A stretch of 48,281 nucleotides of DNA from Candidatus Zixiibacteriota bacterium. Lineage in GTDB: Bacteria; Zixibacteria; MSB-5A5; JAABVY01; JAHJOQ01. Shown piece after piece: positions 6,685 to 47,431 of the stretch. The DNA lies in contig JAGVNY010000140.1 in NCBI GenBank assembly GCA_020053015.1, positions 1 to 48,281 on the forward strand, in the 5' to 3' direction. The position numbers and the translations under genes were made by a program. The notes beneath the pieces are model-generated. The model saw only the letters and a list, made by a program, of their open reading frames with translations. It was not told where the DNA came from and made no database searches. Positions within the stretch are counted from its first letter, which is position 1. Every line of letters begins with the position of its first letter.

Positions 6685-6690
6685 TTCAAA

Positions 6691-6707
6691 TCGGGCAGCC
6701 TGCCCGA
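6691..6707 (-). promoter_or_regulatory. Putative bacterial SECIS hairpin
   Basis: mRNA UCGGGCA-GGC-UGCCCGA, a perfect 7-bp stem whose G-led loop begins 18 nt after the in-frame UGA at 6719-6721. Confidence 0.7.
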
Positions 6708-6709
6708 AA

Positions 6710-6931
6710 TCAGAAGCCTCAGCCTCCGTTGAAGCCGAGCTTCACCTCTGTGCCGGAAACGATGATCGGCACTATGCGTTGTCCCTTCGAGTGCGACAGC
6801 GCTTCGCCGGCTATCTTCTTAGTCGATGTGACGTCAAACTCGTCGTATGCAATGCCGCGCTTGACCAGATCTTCTTTGGCTGCCGCGCAATAAGGGCATC
6901 CGGGTTTCGTGTAGATCTTCACATTTGCCAT
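6710..6931 (-). CDS. Glutaredoxin-like (seleno)protein, Uxx-star type, 73 aa with Sec at UGA 6719-6721
   Basis: ATG 6931 with AAGGTGAG RBS; MANVKIYTKPGCPYC...RIVPIIVSGTEVKLGFNGG-UGA-GGC-TTC-TGA, i.e. GG-U-G-F-stop; CPYC motif, cis-Pro VP motif and a downstream SECIS-like hairpin. Confidence 0.85.
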
Positions 6932-6932
6932 T

Positions 6933-8498: not shown

Positions 8499-8499
8499 G

Positions 8500-10431: not shown

Positions 10432-10443
10432 GTCGTCTCTCCC

Positions 10444-10755
10444 CTACCACCGCATGATGTTGAAGTCGTCTGCATTGACACTCTCCCTGTTCCTGAACAC
10501 CGCGAGGATGATCGCCAGACCAACTGCTGCCTCGGCTGCCGCGACGGCAAACACGATGAAAACAAAGGCATGCCCAGAGACGTCACCGAGAGCTCTCGAG
10601 AACGCGATAAGAGCGAGATTCCCGGCATTGAGCATGATCTCGATTGACATGAAGATCACGATCAGATTCCTGGACGTCAGGACTCCCAGCACTCCGATCG
10701 CGAAGATCACAGCGGACAACGTCAGATAGTATTCCAGGGGTACCATTTCAATCAT
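10444..10755 (-). CDS. nuoK: NADH-quinone oxidoreductase subunit K
   Basis: SIEIMLNA and AVAAAEAAVGLAI motifs; start may be the second ATG at 10746. Confidence 0.95.
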   Translation of the reverse strand: MIEMVPLEYYLTLSAVIFAIGVLGVLTSRNLIVIFMSIEIMLNAGNLALIAFSRALGDVSGHAFVFIVFAVAAAEAAVGLAIILAVFRNRESVNADDFNIMRW

Positions 10756-11251
10756 CCAGTCTCTTCTTCGCGAGCACTACAGCGCCGAGTATAGCGGCCA
10801 TCAACAGGATTGATGTGGCCTCGAAAGGAAGCAAGTACTTCGTAAACAGGATTTCTCCGATCGATTCCACCGATCCGAAGTTCTCCGGAAGGCTAACAGA
10901 CGGAGAGCGAGATCCGTCTCTCAGCGCCACAATTACCAGCTCGAATGCGAGCAACGCTGCAAGCGCAACTGCTGCAAACTTCTGAAATGGGTGTCTATCT
11001 CCGCCGAATTCGTCTTTGCGCAGATTGAGCAGCATAATGATGAACAGGAAGAGAACCATTATCGCGCCAGCGTAGACGATTATCTGGAGTGCGGCGACGA
11101 AGACGGCAGACAACTGCACGAAGAGAATCGCCTGTGCCACGAAAGCCATGATGAGAAACAGCACTGCTCGCACTGGGTTCTTCTGGGTGATGACCATCAG
11201 GCAGCAGGCCACCGACGCGATTGCAGCGAGTATGAAGATGAACATTTCCAA
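10748..11251 (-). CDS. nuoJ: NADH-quinone oxidoreductase subunit J
   Basis: QIIVYAGAIMVLFLFIIMLL and YLLPFEATSILL motifs. Confidence 0.95.
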   Translation of the reverse strand: MEMFIFILAAIASVACCLMVITQKNPVRAVLFLIMAFVAQAILFVQLSAVFVAALQIIVYAGAIMVLFLFIIMLLNLRKDEFGGDRHPFQKFAAVALAALLAFELVIVALRDGSRSPSVSLPENFGSVESIGEILFTKYLLPFEATSILLMAAILGAVVLAKKRLDD

Positions 11252-11273
11252 GCGAGTGAACCTTCTCTTCGAG

Positions 11274-11756
11274 CTACTTCATGTAAGGTCTTCGTTTCTT
11301 GCGGATGAAATTCACCGGAGACGGCTTTGTGCGTGGCCATTTCACCAGCAAGTCTTCCTTAGTATAGATGAACTTCTCCCGCGCGTCATCAGAGAACTCG
11401 TATTCTTTTCCGAGAAAGATGGCCTCCTCCGGACATGCCTCTTCGCAGAATCCACAGAAGATGCACCGGAGCAAATTGATTTCATAAATCCTTGCTTTGC
11501 GCTCGCCCTTCTCTGTCTCTTCCGGCTCCATGTATATGGCATCCGCGGGACAGGCTGCCGCACAGAGTCCGCAACAGACGCATCTTTCGGAGCCATCTTC
11601 ATATCGCTCAAGAAAGTGCAATCCGCGATAGCGCGGAGCCATCGGGATCTTGACCTTTGGGTACTGCACGCTGACCGGTTTGCGGATCAGGTTCTTCAGC
11701 GTGGTGTAGAACCCTATGGGGATCGCAAGGATATGTCTCTTTATGAAGTCGTTCAT
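11274..11756 (-). CDS. nuoI: NADH-quinone oxidoreductase subunit I
   Basis: Two CxxCxxCxxxCP ferredoxin motifs (CVCCGLCAAACP, CIFCGFCEEACP); RYRGLH. Confidence 0.96.
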   Translation of the reverse strand: MNDFIKRHILAIPIGFYTTLKNLIRKPVSVQYPKVKIPMAPRYRGLHFLERYEDGSERCVCCGLCAAACPADAIYMEPEETEKGERKARIYEINLLRCIFCGFCEEACPEEAIFLGKEYEFSDDAREKFIYTKEDLLVKWPRTKPSPVNFIRKKRRPYMK

Positions 11757-11765
11757 GTCTTCAGT

Positions 11766-12749
11766 CTACAGCACAAAGAACGCCGTTACCATCACGTTGA
11801 TCACCGCAATCGGGAGCAGTACCTTCCATCCAAAGCTCATGAGCTGGTCGTACCGTAACCGGGGCAGAGTGCCTCTCGCCCAGATGTAGAAGACCTGGAA
11901 CGCTGCCACTTTGATCAGGAACCACACGATAGGCGGAAGAAACGGACCATGCCAACCTCCGAAGAACAGCGTGGTTGCGATCGCCCCGACTGTGATCATG
12001 TTGGCATACTCCGCCACGAAAAACATTCCGAATTTCATCGACGAGTACTCTGTGTGGTACCCTGCGACGAGCTCACTCTCAGCTTCGGGTAGATCGAACG
12101 GCGACCGGTTCGTCTCAGCGACGGCACAGATGAAATAGACGACGAACGCAACTGGGTTCCTGAACACGTACCAACCTACGAACGAGCCCTGCTTGTCAAC
12201 TATGTCTACGAGATTCAGAGATCCGGATAGGAGAATAACGACAACTATCGCGAGACCCATTCCGATCTCATAGGATATCATCTGGGCCGATGATCGCAAT
12301 CCGCCCAGAAGCGAATACTTGGAATTCGATGAATAACCTGCCATGATAATCGAATAGACCCCGATTGACGTTATCGCAAGTACGTACAGGATGCCGACGT
12401 TCAGATTGGAGATCACCAAATCGTACGTCCTGCCGAACAGCGTTATGCTGTCGCCGAATGGGACCACCGCAATTGAAAGGGTGGCCGGAATAAACGATGC
12501 AAGCGGAGCGATGCCGTAAATGAACTTGTCGACGTGCTTCGGAGTAATATCTTCTTTGAAAAGCAGCTTTATCATGTCGGCAACGGGTTGCAGCAACCCT
12601 TGATACCCAGCGTTCATCGGTCCGAGCCGAGACTGGATGCGCGCGACAAGCTTTCGCTCCAGCCAAGTCATGTATGCGCATCCCGTCAGCAGCACCGCGA
12701 ATACTGCGATTACCTGGATAAGCTTCACGATTAGGAACGTCCAGTCCAT
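11766..12749 (-). CDS. nuoH: NADH-quinone oxidoreductase subunit H
   Basis: WLERK...RLGP, AQMISYE, ETNRSPFDLPEAESELVAGY, RYDQLM. Confidence 0.97.
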   Translation of the reverse strand: MDWTFLIVKLIQVIAVFAVLLTGCAYMTWLERKLVARIQSRLGPMNAGYQGLLQPVADMIKLLFKEDITPKHVDKFIYGIAPLASFIPATLSIAVVPFGDSITLFGRTYDLVISNLNVGILYVLAITSIGVYSIIMAGYSSNSKYSLLGGLRSSAQMISYEIGMGLAIVVVILLSGSLNLVDIVDKQGSFVGWYVFRNPVAFVVYFICAVAETNRSPFDLPEAESELVAGYHTEYSSMKFGMFFVAEYANMITVGAIATTLFFGGWHGPFLPPIVWFLIKVAAFQVFYIWARGTLPRLRYDQLMSFGWKVLLPIAVINVMVTAFFVL

Positions 12750-12750
12750 G

Positions 12751-15363
12751 CTACACCTTAACGAGACTCACCATATCTATGTCGAAGTTGCGATTCCTGA
12801 GCGCATTGGCCTGCATCTCAGGGAAATTGTCCGGAATCCAGACGCAATCGTCCGTGAGTCGCTCAATGTATCTGACTTTTCCGATCAGTTTGCCCGACTT
12901 GTTTTCGACCTTTACAAGATCGCCTTCGGACAGCGCGTGCTTCGTCGCGGTCTTTGCGCTGAGACCCACATACGGTCCGTCCATGAATCTATTCAGACTC
13001 TCTGCCCGAGTAGTCCGCCCTGAGCCGATATGATGATCTCCGTTTCCTGTCAGAAGCACGTACTTATGCGCGGCGTCCAGTTCGGGCGGTTTGAATCGGA
13101 CTTGCTGAAGCCCAGCTGCGCGGTCAAGCGTCTTCCGAGCCGGTACTCGAAGTCCATCCTCCGGGAAGCCGGCAAACGAAACTCGGCTCTCCGGAAAGAA
13201 CCGGGAGTACTCGTCGAACACCTGCTCGGCGCAGCTATAGGCGAATTTGTCGCCTGCGGCAGCTGCGAGATCGTTGAAAATGAGCCATGCGGGTTTCGAC
13301 GAGCCAATCGGCTTGATCGCTTGCTGAAAAGTCTGCACGCGTCCTTCCCAATTGCAGAAGGAACCGGAAGTCTCCATGTGACTCGCCATCGGGAGCACGA
13401 CGTCTGCAAGCTTGGCGGTATCAGTAAGATACAAATCCGTCACAACGAGGAATTCGAGTTTTGACAACGTCGCATGAATGTAGTTGCGATCTGGATATGA
13501 CCGGATGGGATCGGCTGCCACCACAAATGTCATTTCGATCCTGCTCTCGTCTATTTCCCGCAGAATATCAATCGTATCGAATCCTGTTCGGTCAGGTACT
13601 CCACCCTGCCATACAGGTGTGAGAGCATCCTTCTCCGTGATCGACCTGCCAAACGGAAGGCGGTCCGGTCTCATGCCCAGGAGATAACTTCCACGGTTGT
13701 TTCCGCCAATCCTCTGCACCACGATGCATTTTGGTTCATTCTTCAAGTGGCCCGTGACGAGCGCGAGATTGTAGAGCGCAGTGAGGATCATGTCGCGCTG
13801 ATAGTGAAGAGCTACATAAGCGCCTGTTATGAAGACAGCTCTCTTCGCGCCGGCGATCTGCCTGGCAAGGGCTCGAAGCTCGGATTCAGAGATACAACAC
13901 TCGGCAGCAACGTCCTTGACGTCGAGATTGTCAGTCTCATTGAGGAATCTCTCAACGCCTGGATCATCCAGACCCGTCGTTCCGGGATCGAACAACTTCT
14001 CCTGCAGAACGATTCTCGCGACTGCCGTAAGAAGAGATATTTCCGTGTTTGGCTTGTGGACATACTCGTCCCCCGATCTCGCTAACCTTGTGGGAGCAGG
14101 GCCAATAGTAATCAGCTTCGCATTGTTGTATCGTTTCGCCTTCAGCAGTCTGAGAGCAGAGATCGGATTCTCAGTGTGGAGATCGGAACCGAAGATCACC
14201 GCAAGATCGCATTTCTCGAGATCATCGAATGACATGTCAGATCCGATCACTCCCAACTGCGTAAGCTGCGGAGAATGCGTCAGCTTGAGTTTGCGATGCA
14301 GGCGATGATCGATGGAGTTCGAACCGACGACCGAGCGCATGAACTTGCCGATCACGTAGAAATCTTCGTTAGTGCCGTCCTCGCCCACGAGAGCGGCGAC
14401 ACTCTGAGGACCGAGCTTCTCCTTGACCGATTTCAACTTTGCAGCAATAGCGCTGTAGGCATCCTGCCAAGTGCATTCGACAAGCTCTCCTCCCCGCCTG
14501 ATTAGCGGAGTCTTGAGCCTGTCGGCATGATGAACGAACTGATATCCGTAACGTCCGACATCGCAGATGAATCCTTCGTCGACCCGGTCGTTACGTCGCG
14601 AAGTAGCCCGGAATATCCTCTCCCGAGCCGTCCACAGCGTAAGGTTGCAACCATCGGGACAGAAGCCGCACACGCTCTTCTTTTGTTTTGTGAGCCAAAC
14701 ACGGACTTTGTAGCGCCAGTCCCGGTTTGTGAGGGCGCCGACAGGGCAATACTCCACGACGTTGCCGGAATACAGATTTCTGATTTCTCTGCCGGGAGGT
14801 GGGAGTATCTCGGTGCCGTGACCTCGCTCAAAGGCGCCGAGATCGTCTTCTTCGCATATCTCATCGACAATTCGGGTGCATCTGTAACAGTGAATACACC
14901 TGTTCTGATTGCGGATGATCTCGGGACCTATGGGCAGGTCGTCGAATGTAGAGTTCTCGTCGACAATAAATCTCTGCCGAGGCTCTCTCGTCCTGGCAAA
15001 GTCGAGACCGTAGTGATACGTGATGTTCTGCAGCGGGCATTCACCGCCTTTGTCGCATGTCGGGCAGTCGAGTGGATGATTCAGAAGAATGAACTCTATG
15101 ACTGCCTGTCTTGCCTTCACGACGCGCTGATTGCTCGCATACACAATCATTCCGTCTGCTGCAAGCGTCGCGCAGGATACCTGCAATTTGGGCCACTTCT
15201 CAACCTCGACAAGACACACTCGGCATGCGCCGATTGATTTCAGCTTCGAGTGCCAGCAGAAAGTCGGAATCTCGATGCCATTGTCGAGTGCAGCTTCGAG
15301 GATGGTCTTGCCGGCAGTCGTGGTAATCTCTCGGCCGTCTATGGTGAGTTTAATCTGGCTCAT
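12751..15363 (-). CDS. nuoG: NADH-quinone oxidoreductase subunit G (long form with N7 cluster and molybdopterin-oxidoreductase-like C-terminus)
   Basis: IPTFC, GACRVC, NHPLDCPTCDKGGECPLQ, RCIHCYRC, CPVGAL, and CGFCPDGC...ICDVGRYG. Confidence 0.95.
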   Translation of the reverse strand: MSQIKLTIDGREITTTAGKTILEAALDNGIEIPTFCWHSKLKSIGACRVCLVEVEKWPKLQVSCATLAADGMIVYASNQRVVKARQAVIEFILLNHPLDCPTCDKGGECPLQNITYHYGLDFARTREPRQRFIVDENSTFDDLPIGPEIIRNQNRCIHCYRCTRIVDEICEEDDLGAFERGHGTEILPPPGREIRNLYSGNVVEYCPVGALTNRDWRYKVRVWLTKQKKSVCGFCPDGCNLTLWTARERIFRATSRRNDRVDEGFICDVGRYGYQFVHHADRLKTPLIRRGGELVECTWQDAYSAIAAKLKSVKEKLGPQSVAALVGEDGTNEDFYVIGKFMRSVVGSNSIDHRLHRKLKLTHSPQLTQLGVIGSDMSFDDLEKCDLAVIFGSDLHTENPISALRLLKAKRYNNAKLITIGPAPTRLARSGDEYVHKPNTEISLLTAVARIVLQEKLFDPGTTGLDDPGVERFLNETDNLDVKDVAAECCISESELRALARQIAGAKRAVFITGAYVALHYQRDMILTALYNLALVTGHLKNEPKCIVVQRIGGNNRGSYLLGMRPDRLPFGRSITEKDALTPVWQGGVPDRTGFDTIDILREIDESRIEMTFVVAADPIRSYPDRNYIHATLSKLEFLVVTDLYLTDTAKLADVVLPMASHMETSGSFCNWEGRVQTFQQAIKPIGSSKPAWLIFNDLAAAAGDKFAYSCAEQVFDEYSRFFPESRVSFAGFPEDGLRVPARKTLDRAAGLQQVRFKPPELDAAHKYVLLTGNGDHHIGSGRTTRAESLNRFMDGPYVGLSAKTATKHALSEGDLVKVENKSGKLIGKVRYIERLTDDCVWIPDNFPEMQANALRNRNFDIDMVSLVKV

Positions 15364-16649
15364 TAGGTGAAGCTTGGCATCCTATTGATTGTCATGCACT
15401 TCTTGTGCTTAATGTGATACTCGAATTCATCGCGAAAGGTCTTGGTGAAAGCCCGCACAGGCATCGCAGCGGCATCGCCGAGCGGACATATCGTGTGCCC
15501 TTCGATCTTGTCGCACACATCAAGCAGCAACTCAATGTCATTCTCGCAGCCCTTGCCGCTTTCGATCCTGTCCAGGATTTGAAACATCCATTGCGTTCCC
15601 ATTCTGCAAGGCGTGCACTTGCCGCAGGACTCGTGCATATAGAAATGGGCGAGTTTGCGCGCAGCCCACACCATGCAAGTGTCCTCGTGCATAACGACCA
15701 CGCCCCCAGATCCGAGCATCGACCCTGCTTGGGCGACGGACTCGAAGTCGAGATGAACGTCCAGCTTGTCCGGAGTCAATACCGGAGTCGATGAGCCTCC
15801 GGGGATAATAGCCTTGATCTTCTTGTCCCCCAGCACTCCACCTCCGAGATCGTTGATCAGGTAGCTGAGAGGGGTTCCGAGCTCCAACTCATAGTTGCCG
15901 GGCCGCTTGACGTGACCCGAAAGACAGAAGATCCGAGTGCCGGTCGATTTCTCCGTGCCCATCTTCGCATACCACTCGGGGCCGTTAGTGATTATCCCGG
16001 GCACATTCGCCAGGGTCTCCACATTGTTTACGACCGTGGGGCTGGCATACAAACCCTCGACCGCAGGGAACGGCGGTCTGATACGCGACAGCCCTCGTTT
16101 TCCCTCGAGCGACTCAAGAAGCGCAGTCTCTTCTCCGCAGATATATGCTCCCCCGCCCGTGTGCACTGCCATCTCGAGATCATAACCTGCGCCGAAGAGG
16201 TTCTTTCCGAGAAAGTCCTTGTCATATGCTTCCTGTACGGCTTTTCTCATTTGTGCCGCGGGATATGCGAATTCGCCGCGTATGTAAATGTATGCGTTGT
16301 GTGCGCCGATAGCGAACGCCGCTATGGCCATGCCCTCCACAACTCTGTGCGGGTCTCTCTCGAGCAGCACTCGGTCCTTGCAGGTACCCGGCTCCGATTC
16401 GTCGCCGTTGCAGACAAGATATTTGGGCTTCGGCGAGTCCTTGGGAACAAAGCTCCACTTCACACCCGCAGGGAATCCAGCCCCTCCCCGTCCGCGCAAA
16501 CCTGATCGTTTGACGATGTCGATCACATCGGCGGGCTTTAGCTCTCGCAGTACCTTCTCCCAAGCCTTGTATCCGCCCGTGGAGATATATGTAGCAATCT
16601 TATGCTGATCGGGATTGTCGATGTATTTGAAAAGGACTCTGAGTTCCAC
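15363..16649 (-). CDS. nuoF: NADH-quinone oxidoreductase subunit F
   Basis: SGLRGRGGAGFP, NGDESEPGTCKDR, GAYICGEETAL, HESCGKCTPCR. Confidence 0.97.
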   Translation of the reverse strand: MELRVLFKYIDNPDQHKIATYISTGGYKAWEKVLRELKPADVIDIVKRSGLRGRGGAGFPAGVKWSFVPKDSPKPKYLVCNGDESEPGTCKDRVLLERDPHRVVEGMAIAAFAIGAHNAYIYIRGEFAYPAAQMRKAVQEAYDKDFLGKNLFGAGYDLEMAVHTGGGAYICGEETALLESLEGKRGLSRIRPPFPAVEGLYASPTVVNNVETLANVPGIITNGPEWYAKMGTEKSTGTRIFCLSGHVKRPGNYELELGTPLSYLINDLGGGVLGDKKIKAIIPGGSSTPVLTPDKLDVHLDFESVAQAGSMLGSGGVVVMHEDTCMVWAARKLAHFYMHESCGKCTPCRMGTQWMFQILDRIESGKGCENDIELLLDVCDKIEGHTICPLGDAAAMPVRAFTKTFRDEFEYHIKHKKCMTINRMPSFT

Positions 16650-16653
16650 TCTT

Positions 16654-17130
16654 CTATCCCTTTTTCCTCAGCTCGTCGATTATTGCGTCGACTTTCTCTC
16701 GCGTCAAATTCTCGTAGAACAGGTCATTGATCTGCATCATCGGCGCTGTCGTGCACGATCCGAGGCACTCAACCGTAACGACCGTAAACAAACCATCCGG
16801 AGTTATTGCGCCCTTCTTCACGTCGAGCTTGCGTAGCAGATATTCCACCAGCGACTCGGCTCCGAGCAACGAACAAGACAGATTGTGACAGACTTGAATG
16901 AAGTACTTCCCGACAGGCTGCTTCGGAAACATCGTATAGAATGACGCTGCTTCTGCGATCTGGATTGTATCGAGATCGAGTACGTCGGCAATCTCGCGAT
17001 AGACCACCTCGTTCAGGTGGCCAACCTGTCTGTATGCGTGTGTCAAAGCCGGCAGGATGCACGACCGTCTCTGCGGGTATTTGGGAATGTCAGCACGTAT
17101 TGCCTTAACGGTCTGCTCGTTGAGTATCAT
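16654..17130 (-). CDS. nuoE: NADH-quinone oxidoreductase subunit E
   Basis: SFYTMF, VCHNLSC and ECLGSCTTAP 2Fe-2S ligands. Confidence 0.96.
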   Translation of the reverse strand: MILNEQTVKAIRADIPKYPQRRSCILPALTHAYRQVGHLNEVVYREIADVLDLDTIQIAEAASFYTMFPKQPVGKYFIQVCHNLSCSLLGAESLVEYLLRKLDVKKGAITPDGLFTVVTVECLGSCTTAPMMQINDLFYENLTREKVDAIIDELRKKG

Positions 17131-18299
17131 CTGTCGACTTCTCCGAGCACAATATCGATTGAGCCAATTGCCGCGATCACGTCGGCGACCAGTCCACCTT
17201 TGCAGAGCTTATCGAGTGCCGCCGTGTGGACGAAGCTCGGCGGTCTCACGCGCATCCGATAGGGATACGGGCCGCCGTCGGACACGATGTAGAATCCGAG
17301 TTCGCCCTTGGGCGACTCGATTCCTTGATAAACCTCGCCAACCGGTGGATGAATGCCCTCGGTTATTATCTTGAAATGGAATATGAGCGCTTCCATCTCC
17401 TTGAGCGCCCTCTCCTTCGGGGGAAGGATTACTCCCGGAGCGTTAGCGCGGTAATCACCGTCGGGCATTCCGTCAAGCGCCTGCCGGACTATTCGCAGAC
17501 TCTGCCTCATCTCCTGCACTTTGACCAGATACCGAGCGTAAACATCGCAACCGTCGTTGGTTGGAATGTCGAAATCAAACTTTTCGTACGACGAATACGG
17601 ATTTGCCTTCCGCAAATCGTGCTTGATTCCACAGGCTCGAAGAAGCGGCCCTGTGAATCCGCAGCTCAGAGCGTCCTCAGGCGATATCTTTGCCACGCCA
17701 ATAGTCCGGCTTCGCCAAATCGGGTTGTTGGTTAGAAGATCTTCATACTCGTCAAACTTAGATGGGAACTCCTCAAGGATCTCGCGCACCCGCTGATCAA
17801 AATCGGCAGGAAGGTCTTCTGCCAGTCCGCCGAGCCTAAAATATGTCGACATCATGCGCTGCCCGGAGACGAGTTCATATACTGCCAGAATCTTCTCCCT
17901 CTCTCTGAAAGCGTACAGCAGCATGCTCATAGCGCCAATGTCAAGGGCATGTGTTCCGATCCAGACGAGGTGCGAGTTAAGCCTTGTGAGTTCCGTCAGG
18001 CAGACTCTTGCCCACTGTGCCTTGGGGGGGATTTCGACACCGAGCAACTTCTCGACGGCAAGACAAAACCCGAGATTGTTCGACATCGGAGCCAGATAGT
18101 CCATTCGGTCCGTTGTCGGAATGACTTTGTAGTAATGCTTCGATTCCGCGGTCTTCTCGATGCCGGTGTGCAGATAACCGATAATAGGATATGCTCGCAC
18201 GACTGTCTCGCCGTCGAGCTCAAGCTGAACTCGGAGCACGCCGTGGGTGGCAGGATGCTGAGGACCCATGTTCAAGGTCATCGTTCTGGCTTCTATCAC
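17127..18299 (-). CDS. nuoD: NADH-quinone oxidoreductase subunit D
   Basis: NMGPQHPATHGVLR, GYLHTGIEK, ESPKGE, DIVLGEVDR. Confidence 0.97.
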   Translation of the reverse strand: MIEARTMTLNMGPQHPATHGVLRVQLELDGETVVRAYPIIGYLHTGIEKTAESKHYYKVIPTTDRMDYLAPMSNNLGFCLAVEKLLGVEIPPKAQWARVCLTELTRLNSHLVWIGTHALDIGAMSMLLYAFREREKILAVYELVSGQRMMSTYFRLGGLAEDLPADFDQRVREILEEFPSKFDEYEDLLTNNPIWRSRTIGVAKISPEDALSCGFTGPLLRACGIKHDLRKANPYSSYEKFDFDIPTNDGCDVYARYLVKVQEMRQSLRIVRQALDGMPDGDYRANAPGVILPPKERALKEMEALIFHFKIITEGIHPPVGEVYQGIESPKGELGFYIVSDGGPYPYRMRVRPPSFVHTAALDKLCKGGLVADVIAAIGSIDIVLGEVDR

Positions 18300-18808
18300 T
18301 TGATGACCTCGGGTGGCTCTTCGATATTGTGAGAAAACTGCGGGACTTCATATGTAAGCGGAAAATCCTTACGCAGCGGATATCCGTCGAATCCCTCGGG
18401 TGTCAGAATCCTCGTCATGTCCGGATGACCCTGAAATTCGATTCCAAACATGTCATACACTTCTCGCTCAAGCCAGTTGGCGATATCCCACAGGCCTGTC
18501 AGAGTGGGGACCTTCTCCCTTTCTTTCGCTCTGATCTTTATTCGGACGTACGTGTGCGAGTCGAGTGAATAGAGCAAGTACACTATCTCGTGCCGCTCAC
18601 TGCGACCTGGCCAGTCAGTTGCCGTCAAATCGGTAAGCATCCCAAAGCGCAGGTCAGGAGATGTCTTCAGGTGGCTTAGAATCTCTATCAACGTGTTCTT
18701 CTTGACAATGATAGTCAGTTCGCCGCGAAAGTACGACGATTCTATGAGAGCGTCAGGAAAATTCTCTCTAAGCTGCGATTCGACTTTCTGAAGAACCACG
18801 TTGATCAT
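18296..18808 (-). CDS. nuoC: NADH-quinone oxidoreductase subunit C
   Basis: ANWLEREVYDMFGIEFQGHPD and GYPLRKDFPL. Confidence 0.96.
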   Translation of the reverse strand: MINVVLQKVESQLRENFPDALIESSYFRGELTIIVKKNTLIEILSHLKTSPDLRFGMLTDLTATDWPGRSERHEIVYLLYSLDSHTYVRIKIRAKEREKVPTLTGLWDIANWLEREVYDMFGIEFQGHPDMTRILTPEGFDGYPLRKDFPLTYEVPQFSHNIEEPPEVIK

Positions 18809-18870
18809 CTTGCTACACTTTTCACAATCAGCGGCGGTGGTCCCTAACGCTGAGGTGATTTCTCACCAGA

Positions 18871-19353
18871 CTATTTCTTCGTTGTTTGGATGGATTCCTT
18901 CTTGATCTTCTCTTGCAGTTTCACGATGCCATCGATAAGCTGTTCCGGTCTCGGAGGGCAGCCGGGAACATAGACGTCAACCGGGAGTATCTTGTCAACT
19001 CCCTGCAGGATTGCATAGTTGTTGAACACACCACCGGTCGATGCACAGGCTCCCATAGCGATCACCCACTTCGGAGAGGGCATCTGATCGTAGAGGAGTT
19101 TGATGATCGGCGCCATCTTGTTGGACACGCGACCGGAGATTATGATGAGGTCTGCCTGTCTCGGGGACGGGCGCATTACTTCCATGCCAAATCTTGCGAG
19201 ATCGAATCGTGGTCCGAATGTCGACATCATTTCGATCGCACAGCATGCGAGACCGAATCCGAGAGGCCACAGGGAATTCTTACGTCCCCAATTGACCATC
19301 TTGTCGACGGTCGTCAGAAGTATACCCTCCGGGATCTTTTCCTCTAATCCCAC
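18871..19353 (-). CDS. nuoB: NADH-quinone oxidoreductase subunit B
   Basis: [30 protein letters not shown]. Confidence 0.97.
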
Positions 19354-19703
19354 TTCAGCGCCCCTCGTTTTAATATGTAGATGTAGCCGACGACCAGTAT
19401 GCCGATGAATACGAGCATCTCAATGAATCCGAAAAGCGCGAGCTTCCTGTAGACGACAGCCCAAGGGTACATAAAGACAACTTCGATATCAAAGACGATG
19501 AACAGGATTGCGATCAGGTAGAACTTGATCGGAAATCTCTCCTTGGTCGTGCCGACTGGCTCGATTCCGCACTCATAAGGTGTGTCCATATACTGGGAGT
19601 CAGTTGTCTTCCTTCCAAGGAACTTGGACAGAAGATACAGACCACCACCGGCAGCTGTCGACACGCACAAAAGCAAGAAGATCGGGAGATATGTCTCAAG
19701 CAC
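19344..19703 (-). CDS. nuoA: NADH-quinone oxidoreductase subunit A
   Basis: PYECGI and [21 protein letters not shown]; start moved to GTG 19703 because GGAG lies upstream and the longer ORF start overlaps the promoter. Confidence 0.95.
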
Positions 19704-19741
19704 CAACTTCTCCGAATCAGCCCCCGCCGAGATTAGCGGGG

Positions 19742-19770
19742 AATCTACCAATGGTACGAGGGGGTGTCAA
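19742..19770 (-). promoter_or_regulatory. sigma70 promoter of the nuo operon
   Basis: Minus strand TTGACA-N17-TAGATT, about 40 nt upstream of the nuoA start. Confidence 0.65.
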
Positions 19771-39647: not shown

Positions 39648-40112
39648 ATGCGTATTTTGCGACTCGCTTTCACCACGGCATGTGTAGTTGCCCTTGCGGC
39701 ATTCAGCCTGACGATGGGCTCCAGCCATGGCAGCCCAAAGTCTGACGATCTCGTGCTCGTGCGCTCAGTCGTCGCATCGGCAGGTCGGACCGGGAGCACG
39801 TCCGGCTTCAGGCTTTCCGGTACTCTCGGCCAGATGGCGACGGGGACAGGGTGGGCTGTCGGTCTGACAATGCACAACGGCTACTGGCAGGACTTCCGGC
39901 AGGTGATCTGCGGTGATCCCTCCAAGGATAAGTTCGTTGACATCGACGACATACTCTATCTGATCAACTACGTCTTTCTGGGAGGGGTAGCCCCAGACCC
40001 GGAATACATCGGCGATGTCAACTGCTTCGATGGGATAGACGTTGATGACATTATCTACCTCATCAACTATATATTCCTCGCCGGCCCGGTACCTTGTGCT
40101 GACTGTCCATAG
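39648..40112 (+). CDS. Small secreted protein with a Gly/Ser-rich beta module and a DIDD dockerin
   Basis: Signal peptide; VVASAG...FRLSGTLGQ...MHNGYWQDF; CGDPSKDKFVDIDDILYLINYVFLGG...GDVNCFDGIDVDDIIYLINYIFLAGPVPC. Confidence 0.8.
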   Translation: MRILRLAFTTACVVALAAFSLTMGSSHGSPKSDDLVLVRSVVASAGRTGSTSGFRLSGTLGQMATGTGWAVGLTMHNGYWQDFRQVICGDPSKDKFVDIDDILYLINYVFLGGVAPDPEYIGDVNCFDGIDVDDIIYLINYIFLAGPVPCADCP

Positions 40113-40293: not shown

Positions 40294-40486
40294 ACGATTT
40301 GCGGGCAGTAATTTATCGATGACTTGCTGCATGCACAAGAGCTTTTTGATCTCTGAAGTGCGAAAGTGTGGGATGTTATGCGGACGAGTGCAACGCGTCG
40401 AATCTCACAAATGCAAAAAAAAGGTTGAGATACGGGTTACGAGACCATATATTTATGGTCTTAACTCGTTTAGGGAGACTCAAGGA

Positions 40487-42016
40487 ATGAATCTGACTTT
40501 CCAAAAGAAGGCTATGTCATTCGCGATGCTCGGCATTGGGCTCGCGTTCTTGCTTTTCGCCGGTATGTCGTGTGACAGCACGGGCGACAAGAAGCTCTAT
40601 TCGGTCGAGCGGCTCCATTTCGCGGCTGAGAAACTCCATGACAAACGACTCGGAATCAAACCGGAGCTCGCCACTGAAGCTGATTATCGCGAAGTTATTG
40701 ACGAATACATAAAGGTCGTCACGACATTTGAACTCAACTTCTCTGATGTGAAAGACAAGGATTCGATCACCGTGAACGAAGGCCGTGCAGCCTTTCTCGC
40801 CGGATCAAGCCTTCTGGAGGCGGCAAGATTGAATCTTCTCAGTAGCGACACCATTGCGGCGGTCAAGCTGCTCGGTGAATTCGATTCTCGGTTCCCGCAC
40901 AATCGCGATCACGGCGCGATGGCTTTGCTGCAACTTGGGCGCATCGAAGAGCAACTCGGCCATGCGGAATCGGCAGAGCTGTCGTACATGAGGCTGCTCG
41001 AGAGCTACTACCCCCCGGCCGACAGATCTCTTCGACCCAATACGGATGTTCTTGAATTGCCGGTGAAGATGGCCCGGATGTACGAAGAACTTGAGGATAC
41101 TCGAAAGACTGAGGAGATGCTTGACCGCGCGGAAACGTACTACAAAGGCATCATCGAGAAGTTCAAATTCAGCCCGCTCGGTATGACAACGACGCGATTC
41201 CTTGCGGACACCTATATAATGCGCGATAAGCCAAACGAGGCAATTGGGCTTCTGGAAACGGTCATAGATTCGACCGGCACGATTATAGGCAGCGCGCAAA
41301 TTCTCATCGCTGGCATCTATGCTTCAGACAAGGCTGACACATCCGAGGCGAAGCGCAGATATCAGACTGTCATCCAATCAAGCGAGAACGACACTGCCTT
41401 GCTGGGAAGAGCCTACATGCAGCTCGCTGGAATAGAATTCGCATCCGGCAACTACGACGAATGCAGGAAGTTGATCTCGACCGTAAAGGAGAAGTTCAAG
41501 AAATTTCCTGCAGTGCAGGCAAAAGCCCAGCAGATCTTTGCAGCGTCGTTTGAGCAGGAGGATGATTTCAATCGGGCTTACAGCGAATACCAATGGCTTC
41601 TCACGAATTACCCGGACAGCCGTGAGGCAATCGACACATACCGCCGCTTGCCGGGCTTTCTACGTACTCACGGACAGGCGACTCTCGCGGACGAGTGGTT
41701 TCAAAAAGCCCAGACTTTTTTGACCGCCAAACGTGAGTCATCGAAGGGCAATCAGCTTGGACTTGCATCTCAGGCTGCTCTCGTGAATCTGTATGTGGAT
41801 GCAGAGCGCTGGGACGAAACTGTGTCCGAAATGGAGAGGCTCCAAACAGAGTATCCTCGGTCCGTCGCCGGATCGCAGGCACTCGCTCGCGCAGGAAACG
41901 TGCTGCGGGACAAGCTCGGAGACAGAACCAAGGCAAAGCTATACTACGAAAGGCAGTTGAGTTTGTACCCCGATGTGCCGATCTCAGAAGAAGTGAAAAG
42001 GCATCTCAATCCATAA
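40487..42016 (+). CDS. Tetratricopeptide-repeat lipoprotein
   Basis: Lipobox-like LLFAGMSC after a hydrophobic stretch; repeated helical motifs of the type A..Y..LL..YP; start reset to ATG 40487. Confidence 0.8.
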   Translation: MNLTFQKKAMSFAMLGIGLAFLLFAGMSCDSTGDKKLYSVERLHFAAEKLHDKRLGIKPELATEADYREVIDEYIKVVTTFELNFSDVKDKDSITVNEGRAAFLAGSSLLEAARLNLLSSDTIAAVKLLGEFDSRFPHNRDHGAMALLQLGRIEEQLGHAESAELSYMRLLESYYPPADRSLRPNTDVLELPVKMARMYEELEDTRKTEEMLDRAETYYKGIIEKFKFSPLGMTTTRFLADTYIMRDKPNEAIGLLETVIDSTGTIIGSAQILIAGIYASDKADTSEAKRRYQTVIQSSENDTALLGRAYMQLAGIEFASGNYDECRKLISTVKEKFKKFPAVQAKAQQIFAASFEQEDDFNRAYSEYQWLLTNYPDSREAIDTYRRLPGFLRTHGQATLADEWFQKAQTFLTAKRESSKGNQLGLASQAALVNLYVDAERWDETVSEMERLQTEYPRSVAGSQALARAGNVLRDKLGDRTKAKLYYERQLSLYPDVPISEEVKRHLNP

Positions 42017-42047: not shown

Positions 42048-42614
42048 GTGACACAGATCAGACTCTGCACGGTAATCGCGATTCTCGGAGTGTTGGCTAT
42101 CGCAGCGCCATCCTTCGCTCAGAGCGATGCCTACGGAAAACCAGACGCGTGTCAGGTAGTGCTGAAGGAAACAGCCAAACCGAACCACTGGGCCGTCGAA
42201 ATCAACTTCACAAATGATGAGGCGGTATTTGGACTTATCTTTCCCTTGATAATCTCCTCGAGCAAAGGCGAGCTTTCGTACGACTCGACTTCGTTCGCAG
42301 GTTCCCGCGTCGACTCTTTCGCGGTCAAGATCCCGTATGAAGATACTTCCTGGACGGCCAAGGAGGCCAGTCTGAGGATCAACCTCGGGATGATCGGGTC
42401 GATCTCTCCGTCACCGATCGAACTTCACCCCGGTTCCGGCTTGATCGCTCGCCATTACATCTCCGGAGCCAAGGACGTTACTACTGAGAGCATCTCGGTT
42501 GATACGACTTTCATAGGGCCATCGAACAGGCTCCTGGCCACCATGTATGACCCCGACAAGGGAAGTATTAAGCCAACATTTACGTTTGAGAGGGCTGGGG
42601 GAACCAAGAAGTAG
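42048..42614 (+). CDS. Secreted single cohesin-like domain protein
   Basis: Signal peptide (PSFA/Q); VEINFTNDEAVFGLIFPL...YDSTSFAGSRVDSF...LHPGSGLIAR...VDTTFIGPSN...PTF, which matches the cohesin-like modules of 19871..21322. Confidence 0.65.
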   Translation: MTQIRLCTVIAILGVLAIAAPSFAQSDAYGKPDACQVVLKETAKPNHWAVEINFTNDEAVFGLIFPLIISSSKGELSYDSTSFAGSRVDSFAVKIPYEDTSWTAKEASLRINLGMIGSISPSPIELHPGSGLIARHYISGAKDVTTESISVDTTFIGPSNRLLATMYDPDKGSIKPTFTFERAGGTKK

Positions 42615-43484: not shown

Positions 43485-44255
43485 GTGCAATCTGTGAGAA
43501 AAACATTGGTTCTTGCGTGTCTCGCACTCGTCTTTACTGCGCCGGCGTTTGGATTCAGCTGGACATTCCACGATTTTGGCGGGACGGTGTTTGACGACAA
43601 CAACAACACAAGCCCAATTGATTACCCAAATATAGGATATCTCCCCTCTCCCGGCCACGGCGGTGAGGGCGGCGAGGGATTTGATCTTGAGGGACTGTTC
43701 TTCGCAGAGGACGATGCCTATCTGTACATAGGATTGACAAGTTCATTTGGTCTCGGTGCGATGTCCGAAGATTTCGGCGTGTTTTCGTCGGGTGATGTGT
43801 TCTTCGGATTCGACGGAAATAAGTATGACTACGCAATTAACGTCGAGGAAGGCAGTCTGTATGCCGTTGACGAGTGGTCGTACATCCCTGAGCGCCCCGG
43901 ATCATACGGTGGCCGCCCGATGATCAAGAACATGGTCGGCGCATACCAGATCGTGTCTGGCGACATCATCGGAGAAGCGGGCTTGATGCTGACGTTCGAA
44001 AGAGGTCTCGAAACCAACCCGCTCAGGCCGCCGATGGATGCCAGCGGTGACACATGGGTGTGGGAGTTCAGGATCGCGAAAGAGGATCTTGATGTGTCGC
44101 AGTATAGCTCGATCACTATTCACAACACCCTTGAGTGCGGCAACGATCTTATCGAGGAGACATTCCCGCGCGACCCGATTCCCGAGCCGACAACGCTGAT
44201 GCTTCTCGGCTCAGGCCTTCTCGGCATGGGTGTGTTGAGAAAGAGATTCATGTAG
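43485..44255 (+). CDS. PEP-CTERM sorting-domain surface protein
   Basis: AGGAG RBS region, signal peptide (PAFG), acidic Gly-rich body, C-terminal PIPEPTTLMLLGSGLLGMGVLRKRFM. Confidence 0.93.
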   Translation: MQSVRKTLVLACLALVFTAPAFGFSWTFHDFGGTVFDDNNNTSPIDYPNIGYLPSPGHGGEGGEGFDLEGLFFAEDDAYLYIGLTSSFGLGAMSEDFGVFSSGDVFFGFDGNKYDYAINVEEGSLYAVDEWSYIPERPGSYGGRPMIKNMVGAYQIVSGDIIGEAGLMLTFERGLETNPLRPPMDASGDTWVWEFRIAKEDLDVSQYSSITIHNTLECGNDLIEETFPRDPIPEPTTLMLLGSGLLGMGVLRKRFM

Positions 44256-44786: not shown

Positions 44787-45356
44787 TCAGCATGGATTCG
44801 GCATAGGCGGCCAGCCTCCGTTGAACACGTAATTGATCAGGTAGACGATATCATCAATATCTACCGCCGGATCGCCCCCGCTGCCATCGGCGTCGCCGCA
44901 GCAGATTGCCGGAATCGGCGCCGGACCGCCTGCGAAGACATATTCGATCAGGTACACAATATCGTCGATATCAACCGCCGGGTCTCCCCCGCTGCCGTTG
45001 GCATCGCCCGGTATGCAATACACTCCGAAGTCCTGCCAAAATCCGTGATTCGCCCGATAGCTCGTCGATACTCCCACACCAACCGCTGTCTGCGAGACCG
45101 TGCCATTGAGCACATAGCTTGTCGATGTGCATTCCGACCCGCCGGAAGAGATGACTTGCCAGTGGATTTGGTCGCCCGACAACGGCTCGCTGATTCTGAC
45201 TCGAGCTTGCGGCGGATCCTGCGCCTCCAAGCCAATCGTTGACGATTGATCGTCCACTGCCGCGGGTTTCATCTCAGAACTCTCGCTCAGTGCGGTTGCG
45301 CAGATGACAAGAGTTAGGGCAGCGACAATACACCGAAGCATGTGTGCTGTTTTCAT
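44787..45356 (-). CDS. Small secreted adaptor-like protein with a Gly/Ser-rich beta module and a DIDD dockerin
   Basis: AAGGAG RBS and signal peptide; WQVISSGG...YVLNGTVSQTAVG...YRANHGFWQDF; two nearly identical GDA(N/D)GSGGDPAVDIDDIVYLI repeats; paralog of 39648..40112. Confidence 0.82.
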   Translation of the reverse strand: MKTAHMLRCIVAALTLVICATALSESSEMKPAAVDDQSSTIGLEAQDPPQARVRISEPLSGDQIHWQVISSGGSECTSTSYVLNGTVSQTAVGVGVSTSYRANHGFWQDFGVYCIPGDANGSGGDPAVDIDDIVYLIEYVFAGGPAPIPAICCGDADGSGGDPAVDIDDIVYLINYVFNGGWPPMPNPC

Positions 45357-45381
45357 TGGATGTATCTCCTTTCCGACTTGC

Positions 45382-47034
45382 TCATCTGTCCTCCAGGAGT
45401 TTGTGCAACAATGCCTCCATCTCTGCCAACTGTGCTTTTAGCATCTCGATCTCTTCACGTTGCAGCTGATTCTCGTTGTATAGCGCCTGAATGCCAGCCA
45501 GCGCGACACCATCCGGATCGATCGTAGTTATGTGCGTGTTGTCCTCACCGATGTCGAACGCGGCGTAGAAATCCTGGGCCATCGGGCCTATGTGACGGAT
45601 CGAAGGATTCTGAGCCTTGTAGTTCCAGGAACTTATGGGCAGCAAGGCGATTCTCTCAAGCAACTCCCGTGTGTCGACAAGCGCGAAATTCTCCTTGAGA
45701 TTCCGATCTGAGATGGACGACCATGATCCGCCACCGGCTGCAACCTGCACTCCGGCGTTCGGAGCGCCAGTTCCGTCAATTCCGGTGACGAATCGCACAC
45801 CGCCCGTGGCCCGTGCCGCAAACTCATTGTCAGCCACTGAAGTAAAATCGAAATCGCTCGTGTCTGCCCAGACAAACGCGCCATCGTCATTGGCCTTAGC
45901 TTTCCTGCCGGCAGCGAAGCTGTAGAATCCTCCCGCTACATTGTAGTTGCCGCCCGGGACTGTGGCGTAAGATCCGCTGGCTGTGTTGGTCTCCCCTCCT
46001 CCAATTGTGCTCCCCCAGCCGCTGGCCCTGTTAATCGTCCCACCACAAACTGCGGCGCCCCAGTTACTGGCAGTGTTGCCGGCGCCACCTCCCACAGTGC
46101 TGAAAAAAGAGCCGACTGTGTTCATGTTGCCACCTGCGACGGTACCATAAGCGCCGCTAGCCGTGTGCCCATGGCCCCCGCCGATTGCGGACGAACCACC
46201 CTGGGCGGTGATAGCATTCTCGCTTCCTCCAGCTATTGTGCCATTGCTTTCGATAACGTTCTCCTTGCCGCCACCGATTGTGCTCCAATTCCCACTGATG
46301 GAGTTATCGTGTCCACCTCCGATGGTCGACAAGAAATCACCACTAATGATGTTCCCTGTTCCACCGCCCACCGTATGGTACGAGCCTTCAGCAGTGTTAC
46401 CAGAACCTGCTACGAAGGAAAACTCGCCTGTGTTCGTATTGCCCGGTCCCAATGTAGCTCTGCCTCCAACCCAGCCATCAAGGTCTATGACGACTTCGTA
46501 ATTGTCGTTCATGACCTGTATACGCCCTGGATCTGGATCGAGGTTCATGTCGTCCTGGCCGATTACGAAGAGCGCTGGTTGCCGTTCGCCACCCAGATCG
46601 CCAGCAACTCGGAGATCGCCTTGGATTATCCCCCCCGACGCGCCATCCACCGTGCTTACGCGGTGTGAATAAGCGACAGAAGTCAGTCGCGTGCGCGGGA
46701 CTACATCCTCGCCTTCCACTGCAAGCTGAAGCCAGCGGTCCGGCTCCGCAAATACGGTGTCATCAATCGGAACCTGCGAGCCGAGGATGACCGAGAAGAT
46801 GCCTTCGTTGACGTAAACGTCTGAAGCTTCGGACCAAATCGGATTTCCACCGGTCGAGTCGTCGTAAATGGCGAATGTCATAGAATAAGTGCCGGATACT
46901 GGATCGCCTGAAGTGCCGGTTAAACGCCCCTGGTAGTTGAGCATCTGAGGAGCTGCACCGTATGCGACAGCCGTGAAAGCCAGCGTCAGCAGCCCCAGTG
47001 CAAAAACCATCGATGGCAAATTCGTCTTCTTCAT
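45382..47034 (-). CDS. Secreted tail-fibre-like trimeric adhesin with a C-terminal Peptidase S74 intramolecular chaperone
   Basis: GGAGGAGG RBS before ATG 47034; signal peptide; PQMLNYQGRL...FAIYD...IWSE domain; about 14-aa repeats of the form GNTASG..STIGGG; WSSISDRNLKEN...HIGPMAQDF...ALAGIQAL and a terminal coiled coil. Confidence 0.87.
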   Translation of the reverse strand: MKKTNLPSMVFALGLLTLAFTAVAYGAAPQMLNYQGRLTGTSGDPVSGTYSMTFAIYDDSTGGNPIWSEASDVYVNEGIFSVILGSQVPIDDTVFAEPDRWLQLAVEGEDVVPRTRLTSVAYSHRVSTVDGASGGIIQGDLRVAGDLGGERQPALFVIGQDDMNLDPDPGRIQVMNDNYEVVIDLDGWVGGRATLGPGNTNTGEFSFVAGSGNTAEGSYHTVGGGTGNIISGDFLSTIGGGHDNSISGNWSTIGGGKENVIESNGTIAGGSENAITAQGGSSAIGGGHGHTASGAYGTVAGGNMNTVGSFFSTVGGGAGNTASNWGAAVCGGTINRASGWGSTIGGGETNTASGSYATVPGGNYNVAGGFYSFAAGRKAKANDDGAFVWADTSDFDFTSVADNEFAARATGGVRFVTGIDGTGAPNAGVQVAAGGGSWSSISDRNLKENFALVDTRELLERIALLPISSWNYKAQNPSIRHIGPMAQDFYAAFDIGEDNTHITTIDPDGVALAGIQALYNENQLQREEIEMLKAQLAEMEALLHKLLEDR

Positions 47035-47431
47035 CTTCCTCCTCCAATGAGATACTATGTGAGACATTGCTCTGTCCCCTGCCTTCTCAGCACAGAGTCA
47101 GCACGATTAATGCGTGTCAGTACTCACGGCGGTGATGGGAAAACGAAACACACTCTACGGTCAAAGGCAAGTCATTGAAACAGCAGACTAATCTTGGCTA
47201 TATATCCTCCTTTCGCTCCATAGCTAAACCGGTTCGTACAAGCTTACTCCTTCCTGCTCCATTAGCCACCTCAGGGTCAAGTGCCTTTTCCGAGACGCAG
47301 ATTGAGAGAACTTTCGGTACTGTATTTCATACATAACCACCGAGGCACTTCTTGTCAAGGACAAATACCCGAGGCCTTTCCTCAAAACAAGGTCATGGTT
47401 AGGAGAGGAAGCACTGAGTTTGTGGCAAATT

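Follow-up and report, generated by a model that had tools for sequence, protein, structure and literature searches.

The fibre and adaptor genes

We examined a stretch of 48,281 nucleotides (nt), hereafter the window, from a Candidatus Zixiibacteriota bacterium (contig JAGVNY010000140.1 of assembly GCA_020053015.1, our contig C29 of a 3.1-Mb genome that is 88% complete). Its minus strand carries a gene for a secreted fibre protein and, directly downstream on the same strand, a gene for a small secreted protein in which an undescribed module precedes a dockerin-fold domain. We call the second gene the adaptor gene, after the function proposed for it below. Both genes lie at the coordinates given in an earlier note on this DNA, which had been made from the letters alone and had proposed that the small protein plugs the fibre into cell-surface cohesins. 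The features of the pair are:

45382..47034, minus strand: fibre gene, 550 amino acids (aa) from MKKTNL (list of open reading frames (ORFs), translation)
46957..47034, minus strand: signal peptide of the fibre, MKKTNL...AVAYG, Sec-type, ending AYG (cleavage site by eye)
46633..46959, minus strand: conserved N-terminal domain of the fibre, NYQGRL...PRTRL, called fibN here (NCBIfam Bdello_MAT_N, AlphaFold2)
45874..46380, minus strand: fibre shaft, about eleven 15-residue Gly/Asn/Ser/Thr repeats of YadA/UspA1-head type (phmmer, periodicity)
45556..45711, minus strand: core of the S74 intramolecular chaperone/autoprotease (Pfam PF13884); SDRNLK starts at 45711
45357..45381, minus strand: intergenic spacer of 25 nt; its AAGGAG precedes the second gene's ATG by 8 nt
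44787..45356, minus strand: adaptor gene, 189 aa; signal peptide, linker of about 40 aa, module, dockerin (ORF list)
45027..45206, minus strand: conserved module, GDQIHWQVISSGG...STSYVLNGTVSQTAVG...STSYRANHGFWQDF (profile match)
44790..45020, minus strand: dockerin-fold domain, two GDA-x-GSGG...VDIDD...YLI..VF.GG segments (AlphaFold2, Foldseek)

The fibre gene ends with TGA, and 25 nt with the ribosome-binding site AAGGAG separate it from the ATG of the adaptor gene, so that the small secreted module gene 25 nt behind the fibre is as the earlier note had described it. No terminator-like or promoter-like site or consensus was found between the two genes. The run search returned no RNA sequencing run that carries the locus; one DNA run, a sediment metagenome, does.

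The fibre is a three-part mosaic

Read from its start at 47034, the fibre gene encodes the secreted protein with NYQGRL and S74 that the earlier note had reported: an ATG opens MKKTNL and a Sec-type leader, directly after which comes NYQGRL (AAPQMLNYQGRL). An upstream in-frame ATG takes the ORF to 47067 and gives a 561-aa form (45382..47067). Residues 28–98 match the NCBIfam profile NF053851 Bdello_MAT_N with an E-value of 1.9e-6 and 27.8 bits, under the curated cut-off of 60, and 68 of 72 aligned fibN copies match the same profile at E≤0.001 (best 3.3e-12). This profile describes the N-domain of the mosaic adhesive trimer (MAT) fibres of Bdellovibrio bacteriovorus (Caulton et al. 2024, PMC10769870, in its accessible parts). 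These matches establish that fibN is homologous to the Bdellovibrio MAT N-domain; they do not establish that it belongs to the Bdellovibrio subfamily. The MAT-type architecture is also present, with a signal peptide, a conserved N-domain, a variable fibre and S74 or another tip, in multiple copies. The AlphaFold2 model of fibN is a compact small β-sandwich with a mean predicted local distance difference test (pLDDT) score of 84.5, and 76 of its 117 residues score at least 90. Fold searches with this model gave generic β-sandwich matches (Foldseek E at least 0.009; best VIA-align Z 7.2, within the stated noise of VIA-align), and in a PDB sequence search with the fibN profile no match fell below E 0.05. 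We also considered whether the domain is cohesin-like; no cohesin stood among the listed Foldseek or VIA-align matches. That no specific solved relative of fibN came out of these searches agrees with the remark of the MAT authors, in the parts of PMC10769870 available, that their N-domain is without a structural homologue.

The shaft and the tip come from other families. The earlier note had described Gly/Asn repeats of about 14 aa; the repeats are real, and their period is 15 and not 14, as the self-identity of the shaft peaks at lag 15 (0.28, with 0.23 at lag 30 and approximately 0.07–0.12 at most other lags). Shaft residues 219–387 are homologous to the head of Moraxella UspA1 (3pr7_A, E 1.6e-17, phmmer against the PDB), and a trimeric left-handed β-roll is therefore expected; there is also a weak Pfam match to LbR_Ice_bind. 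Peptidase_S74 (PF13884) was detected at 42.5 bits against a cut-off of 22 (E 8.3e-11), and the whole-genome search puts it at C29:45556-45711. The Ser-Lys dyad motif SDxxxK, as defined for S74 in the accessible text of PMC10769870, is present as SDRNLK at aa 442–447 of the 550-aa form. With a MAT-like base, a YadA/UspA1-type β-roll and S74, the fibre is therefore a three-part mosaic.

The adaptor joins an undescribed module to a dockerin fold

The module of the adaptor (WQVISSGG...GFWQDF) spans approximately 50 residues with two hairpin-like half-repeats of the form S-x-x-Y-x-L...G-Q. Its family is large: one search returned 163 relatives, another 3761 cluster representatives at E≤0.001, and almost all adaptor relatives that bear names are labelled Zixibacteria. 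The module had no match in Pfam, NCBIfam, PHROGs, the PDB (nothing below E 0.05) or the Protein Atlas (at most 0.79), and as far as these profile comparisons go it belongs to no described family. Among the 134 top module representatives, 120 are module-dockerin proteins (two with a second dockerin match), and a few repeat the module in tandem, as two or three copies, some with and some lacking a dockerin. Some module proteins end, by eye, in T9SS-type (type IX secretion system) or transmembrane C-termini. P0142, P0212, P0162, P0163 and P0204 contain two to three modules in tandem or, in a protein of 1034 aa, modules set apart by cadherin-like spacers; a chain with three modules might imitate a trimer. 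For the leader of the window's adaptor (LVIC), a lipoprotein reading was set aside by eye.

The C-terminal part of the adaptor (aa 113–189) was modelled by AlphaFold2 with pLDDT 86–98 and has the duplicated calcium-binding loop-helix fold of a dockerin. Compared with solved dockerins, Foldseek gave target-normalised template modelling (TM) scores of 0.70–0.85 at a root-mean-square deviation (rmsd) of about 2 Å (E 0.06–0.3), and the best 24 matches were all dockerins (target TM 0.38–0.85, rmsd 1.7–3.9 Å, E 0.06–3.2). Many relatives of the adaptor carry the Pfam dockerin PF00404. The dockerin that the earlier note had recognized here thus stands as a fold, whereas the Pfam and NCBIfam thresholds for it are not reached, as detailed below.

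Fibre and module genes are paired across the phylum

A census of the window's own genome (phmmer on ORFs) found the module in 4 ORFs, fibN in 5, S74 in 4 and dockerins like that of the window in 106. Three of the 4 module genes lie directly after genes for fibres with fibN and S74, at gaps of 25, 21 and -4 nt. The fourth is a stand-alone gene in the window itself (39648..40112, plus strand, 154 aa), 5 kb from the pair. It encodes SG..GYWQDF followed by two dockerin segments, has no fibre gene adjoining, and its upstream neighbour on the opposite strand is a homocysteine S-methyltransferase gene. Fibres without a partner in this genome are an S74 fibre on contig C5 and a non-S74 fibN protein on contig C152.

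Across the phylum, the module profile was found in 242 of 285 genomes and the fibN profile in 263 of 285, the latter often in at least 16 copies per genome. Two samples of module genes were scored, and a module gene counted as paired when a fibN gene lay directly upstream on the same strand at a gap of at most 400 nt (local profiles). The complete-genome sample took in all 24 module matches in ten complete genomes. The draft sample consisted of 37 loci from the top of the module match list, mostly one per genome (G040 was sampled twice), after leaving out 11 plus-strand matches less than 2.5 kb from a contig start and two second matches of sampled genomes. A fibN gene stood directly upstream of 17 of the 24 module genes in the complete genomes (13 of the 17 at gaps of at most 70 nt) and of 27 of the 39 evaluable module genes at the draft loci, where two others lay at contig ends. 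Altogether, 44 of 63 evaluable module genes in the phylum sample lie directly after fibre genes. The phylum has roughly 600 module loci; with about 2 module matches and at least 6 fibN matches per genome, adjacency by chance would be far below 1%. The survey that the earlier note had called for was positive at each level, with 3 of 4 module genes in the own genome, the 44 of 63 in the phylum sample, and adjacent single copies in the genomes G285 and G286 of the cross-phylum scan described below. The gene pairing is real and old, and the unit is conserved beyond the single locus.

We also compared the divergence of modules with that of their adjacent fibN domains. The Mantel correlation was r 0.441, against 0.342 ± 0.053 when partners were shuffled within genomes, and 2.4% of 2000 within-genome shuffles reached 0.441; co-inheritance of neighbours would give the same result. 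At G149:C1:190686-205432, eleven fibN fibre genes follow one another in tandem on one strand and end in one module-dockerin gene; locus L021 covers part of this array, with six fibN genes and then one module gene.

Pairing follows the N-domain and not S74

The earlier note had argued that a fibre that loses its C-terminus by S74 cleavage needs an adaptor for this reason. Pfam searches of 66 of the 68 fibN proteins at the sampled loci found S74 in 14 of 66 overall; of the 44 fibres whose gene has a module gene directly behind it, 8 have S74 and 36 do not. Other fibres have different tips, among them MopE repeats and weak Gp53-like/H-lectin or BclA-like matches. In the own genome, the paired fibres of contigs C127 and C222 have shafts that are rich in Asp and show no relation to that of the window's fibre. 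Because only 8 of 44 adjacent fibres carry S74 and because shafts and tips are diverse, the constant partner of the module is the N-domain. As the pairing tracks the N-domain, the S74-cleavage rationale for the adaptor falls, and the structural proposal is kept and sharpened.

A dockerin-like insert directly after fibN was found in 2 of 120 fibN fibres, P0352 (669 aa) and P0383 (366 aa), one of which also has S74. These proteins may be fused forms of fibre plus anchor, and the position of their inserts puts the anchor at the fibre end for which adaptor binding is proposed. A multimer prediction of three N-domains with three modules, from separate alignments, gave a median score of 0.69, but one control with an unrelated protein gave 0.51, and the prediction weighs on neither side of the question of binding.

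The anchor changes between lineages

A scan of other phyla, with one genome per species and a Planctomycetota fibN-S74 protein as the query, returned 12 loci from Planctomycetota, Gemmatimonadota, Nitrospirota, Calditrichia, KSB1, Ignavibacteriales, Verrucomicrobiota and unclassified metagenome-assembled genomes. Nine loci could be evaluated; at 6 of 9 the fibre gene is followed by one whose product has the module right behind its signal peptide, and at a seventh, from Nitrospirota, a module start was recognized by eye only. The order of fibre and then module gene was seen in Planctomycetota, KSB1, Calditrichia and Ignavibacteriales. Four of the six partners have Por_Secre_tail, the T9SS sorting domain, at their C-terminus. 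The partners are built as follows:

Partner C-terminus: 196-aa protein (L068), essentially the module and Por_Secre_tail
Partner C-terminus: module, BNR propeller and Por_Secre_tail
Partner C-terminus: module, immunoglobulin (Ig)-like domain and Por_Secre_tail
Partner C-terminus: module, cohesin, dockerin and T9SS sorting domain, 578 aa (L071 5300-7036, KSB1)
Partner C-terminus: module and dockerin-like domain

Five of these genomes were searched whole. G285 and G286 have one fibN gene and one module gene each, adjacent to one another, and in G289 (KSB1) 3 of 4 fibN genes are followed by a gene for a module protein with a T9SS domain; relative to the pairs at the scan loci, two KSB1 pairs with a partner of this kind are additional. 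The anchor is thus a dockerin in Zixibacteria and a T9SS sorting domain in KSB1, Calditrichia and two other genomes, and the earlier note's expectation of a C-terminal anchor that varies by lineage between these two types held in this small sample. The constant elements of the pair are the N-domain of the fibre and the module of the partner.

Cohesins that could receive the dockerin

Pfam Cohesin was found in 266 of 285 genomes of the phylum. In the own genome, one cohesin lies on a 270-aa ORF with a lipoprotein-like leader, and another on a 762-aa ORF with cohesin and dockerin-like segments and a T9SS-type sorting sequence at its end (leader and sorting sequence by eye). The cohesin ORFs of this genome lie on contigs C189 (the 270-aa ORF), C42 and C86. 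The 106 ORFs of the 3.1-Mb genome that match the window's dockerin point to a large cohesin-dockerin system. Of the 266 genomes with a cohesin match, 236 have module genes, as do 6 of the 19 without one, a comparison in which related genomes are not independent. The literature search gave no paper joining Zixibacteria with dockerin or with cohesin, and the present analysis documents a phylum-wide cohesin-dockerin system in this group.

A proposed display mechanism and its alternatives

We lean toward the reading that the adaptor ties MAT-like fibres to the cell surface, with its module gripping the N-domain of the fibre. The analysis establishes the identities of the domains, the gene order and its conservation across phyla, a changing anchor and the existence of cohesins; the binding is inferred. 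An adaptor that joins a module on the N-domain to the anchor of its own lineage is the most economical mechanism. The earlier note is confirmed in what it observed and partly supported in how it interpreted it. In the scheme that we propose, the pair would be a chromosomal two-gene unit that displays a trimeric adhesive fibre on the cell surface. The first gene would supply a mosaic fibre of the Bdellovibrio MAT kind, with a Sec leader, a cell-proximal N-terminal β-sandwich and a trimeric β-roll shaft borrowed from the YadA/UspA1 adhesin-head family. The S74 chaperone would fold the trimer and then presumably cleave itself off at the serine of SDxxxK. The second gene would supply the adaptor, whose module of about 50 residues would bind the N-domain and whose C-terminal part would fix the fibre complex to the cell, with a presumed surface location and stoichiometry. 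In Zixibacteria the dockerin would plug into cohesins on lipoprotein and T9SS-anchored scaffolds, and in KSB1, Calditrichia and others a T9SS sorting domain would give direct attachment to the surface. Since the N-domain stays conserved while shaft and tip vary, several fibres may share one adaptor in trans.

Several observations weigh against this scheme. Of the 63 evaluable module genes, 19 (about 30%) stand alone. In the five of the ten complete genomes for which fibN coordinates were covered (the other five were covered by counts only), 9 of 44 fibN genes are directly followed by a module gene, or 19 of 44 if all 11 genes of the tandem array are counted as paired. Genome G073 has 16 fibres, none of them paired, and a single stand-alone module gene. 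Outside the phylum, 2 of 9 evaluable loci (L066, L073) have behind the fibre a gene that lacks the module. There are proteins with two to three tandem modules, and large surface proteins not linked to a fibre that have the module at their N-terminus (P0162, P0163); the module may therefore have a more general role. As a monomer it was modelled by AlphaFold2 with pLDDT 55–66, too uncertain for a meaningful fold search. On the anchor side, Pfam PF00404 has no match on the window's adaptor even at E≤10, and NCBIfam dockerin_GC reaches 16.1 bits, below its cut-off of 29. Six genomes of the phylum have module genes without a Pfam cohesin match, which counts against a strict dependence of one on the other.

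Some of these observations would be explained if the two genes encoded co-regulated but independent surface proteins, the module protein being a small anchored adhesin or lectin of its own that makes no contact with the fibre. In favour of this, about 30% of module genes are alone, and the majority of fibres lack an adjoining adaptor. Modules are found besides at the head of large multidomain surface proteins and as tandem copies, and the BNR propeller, FG-GAP and Ig-like domains of partners in other phyla are possible functional heads. We nevertheless judge this unlikely, since the tight, ordered, same-strand adjacency recurs in at least five phyla while everything but the N-domain and the module changes, and is seen also where a genome has each gene only once. 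The smallest partners (196 aa at L068, 194 aa at L079) consist of little beyond module and anchor, so that in them the module is the only functional part. Slightly less likely again, in our view, is that the module protein helps in export or assembly: it would bind the N-domain while in the periplasm and take the fibre across the outer membrane, riding piggy-back on a T9SS sorting domain or on the export of dockerin proteins, with later attachment optional. The fibres have a Sec leader only, partners in T9SS phyla end in Por_Secre_tail, and some Zixibacteria-type relatives are, by eye, module-dockerin proteins with T9SS-like C-termini (P0183, P0244). The order of fibre and then partner resembles the pairs of tail-fibre and assembly-protein genes in phages. 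However, the partner in the window has a dockerin, which is not known as an export signal, and unpaired fibres such as the 16 of G073 would be left without a carrier unless one serves all.

If the adaptor recognized the shaft, the tip or the released S74 fragment instead of the N-domain, the presence of S74 in all three paired fibres of the own genome would be accounted for; we regard this as most improbable, because 36 of the 44 adjacent fibres lack S74, shafts and tips are mutually unrelated, and only the N-domain is common to all of them. We give as little credence to an origin of the pair as a prophage remnant, that is, a tail-fibre gene with its assembly or accessory gene. The shaft/S74 part of the fibre does match phage tail-fibre families, namely phrog_1980 in PHROGs (E 9.2e-10) and, by tblastn, tail-fibre genes in 8 phage records. 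Yet all the tblastn matches fall within aa 299–542 and never touch fibN, the PHROGs match is likewise limited to the shaft/S74 part, and an IMG/VR scan with an N-domain pattern gave 47 pattern matches of which none was confirmed. The adaptor protein has no match in PHROGs, both proteins carry Sec leaders, and fibN is spread through the 263 genomes in up to at least 16 copies. The surroundings of the pair in the window are the nuo operon, acyl-CoA metabolism and other housekeeping genes (Pfam on 37 ORFs), and no phage structural, lysis or integration gene was found there (Pfam on the 37 ORFs, PHROGs on 5). This agrees with the earlier note, which had seen no phage genes nearby, and the IMG/VR and tblastn searches likewise gave no phage context.

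The reading of the adaptor as a surface tie for the fibre can be extended tentatively, to a degree that we consider possible but doubtful: the module could be the missing cell-side receptor of MAT-type N-domains in general, a universal plug for which the N-domain is the socket. Each lineage might then have joined the module to its own anchor, be it a dockerin, a T9SS sorting domain or a cohesin scaffold, and in T9SS phyla the same protein might carry a fibre that has no sorting domain over the outer membrane by piggy-back. If this were true, a related partner would be expected for the predation fibres of Bdellovibrio.

Relation to known systems

MAT-type fibres were described in 2024 as prey-recognition organs of Bdellovibrio, with the hold of the N-domain on the cell left open in the available parts of PMC10769870; neither these nor the available parts of a 2026 review (PMC13689555) name an anchor for the MAT N-domain. 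The fibre of the window resembles them in its Sec leader followed by a homologous β-rich N-domain, in its variable and presumably trimeric shafts and tips, in its multiple copies per genome, and in having S74 and non-S74 subgroups, S74 being present in 13 of 21 Bdellovibrio MATs (PMC10769870, accessible text) and in 14 of 66 fibres here. It differs in its fibN score (27.8 bits against the curated 60), in a Zixibacterium host without a known predatory life style, in a shaft that is a UspA1/YadA-head β-roll, and in its dedicated downstream adaptor, a partner that PMC10769870, in its accessible parts, does not name for MATs.

With the S74 tail fibres and tailspikes of phages (endosialidase K1F, the L-shaped fibre of T5) the window's fibre shares an S74 domain above cut-off, the SDxxxK motif and a PHROGs tail-fibre match, whereas its N-terminus has a Sec leader and no virion attachment domain, and its genomic context is housekeeping. 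Its shaft repeats are homologous to the UspA1 head of trimeric autotransporter adhesins (Moraxella UspA1, Yersinia YadA), but unlike these the fibre ends in S74, and Pfam at E≤0.01 reported only Peptidase_S74 and the weak LbR_Ice_bind match and no C-terminal YadA-type β-barrel anchor. As the C-terminus is an S74 domain that probably cleaves itself off, attachment would have to be via the N-terminal end. Cellulosome-type display by cohesin and dockerin is alike in that a small protein links a cargo to a dockerin and in that the same genome has cohesins on lipoprotein-like and T9SS-type ORFs; it differs in that the cargo here is a fibre and not an enzyme, and in that this cargo would be bound non-covalently through a new module and not fused to the dockerin. 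T9SS cargo proteins are matched by the partners in KSB1, Calditrichia and two other genomes that end in Por_Secre_tail, with the difference that the sorted protein would be an adaptor for a protein without a sorting domain, and that the adaptor of the window has a dockerin. The literature search gave no paper joining Peptidase_S74 with type IX secretion, and the papers joining dockerin, tail fiber and cohesin were unrelated by their titles and the beginnings of their abstracts.

Altogether, fibN is widespread in uncultured phyla, usually in multiple copies, and its genes are coupled with genes in which a small undescribed module is joined to one of several exchangeable surface anchors. With such a pair, trimeric binders might be displayed on cells in a modular fashion.

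Neighbouring genes

Just downstream of the pair, on the other strand, lies a gene for a secreted 256-aa protein with a C-terminal PEP-CTERM sorting signal (43485-44255, plus strand; Pfam, 26.7 bits), and another surface-sorting system is represented nearby. Between this gene and the stand-alone module gene are genes for a 565-aa tetratricopeptide repeat (TPR) protein (40319-42016, plus strand) and a 188-aa secreted protein (42048-42614, plus strand), the latter with a β-rich look and no match in Pfam, NCBIfam or PHROGs. At the other end of the window, a gene for an ordinary subtilase-family protein of 878 aa (2461-5097, plus strand) is followed by the nuo (NADH dehydrogenase) operon (5221-19751, minus strand), which is likewise ordinary and looks complete.

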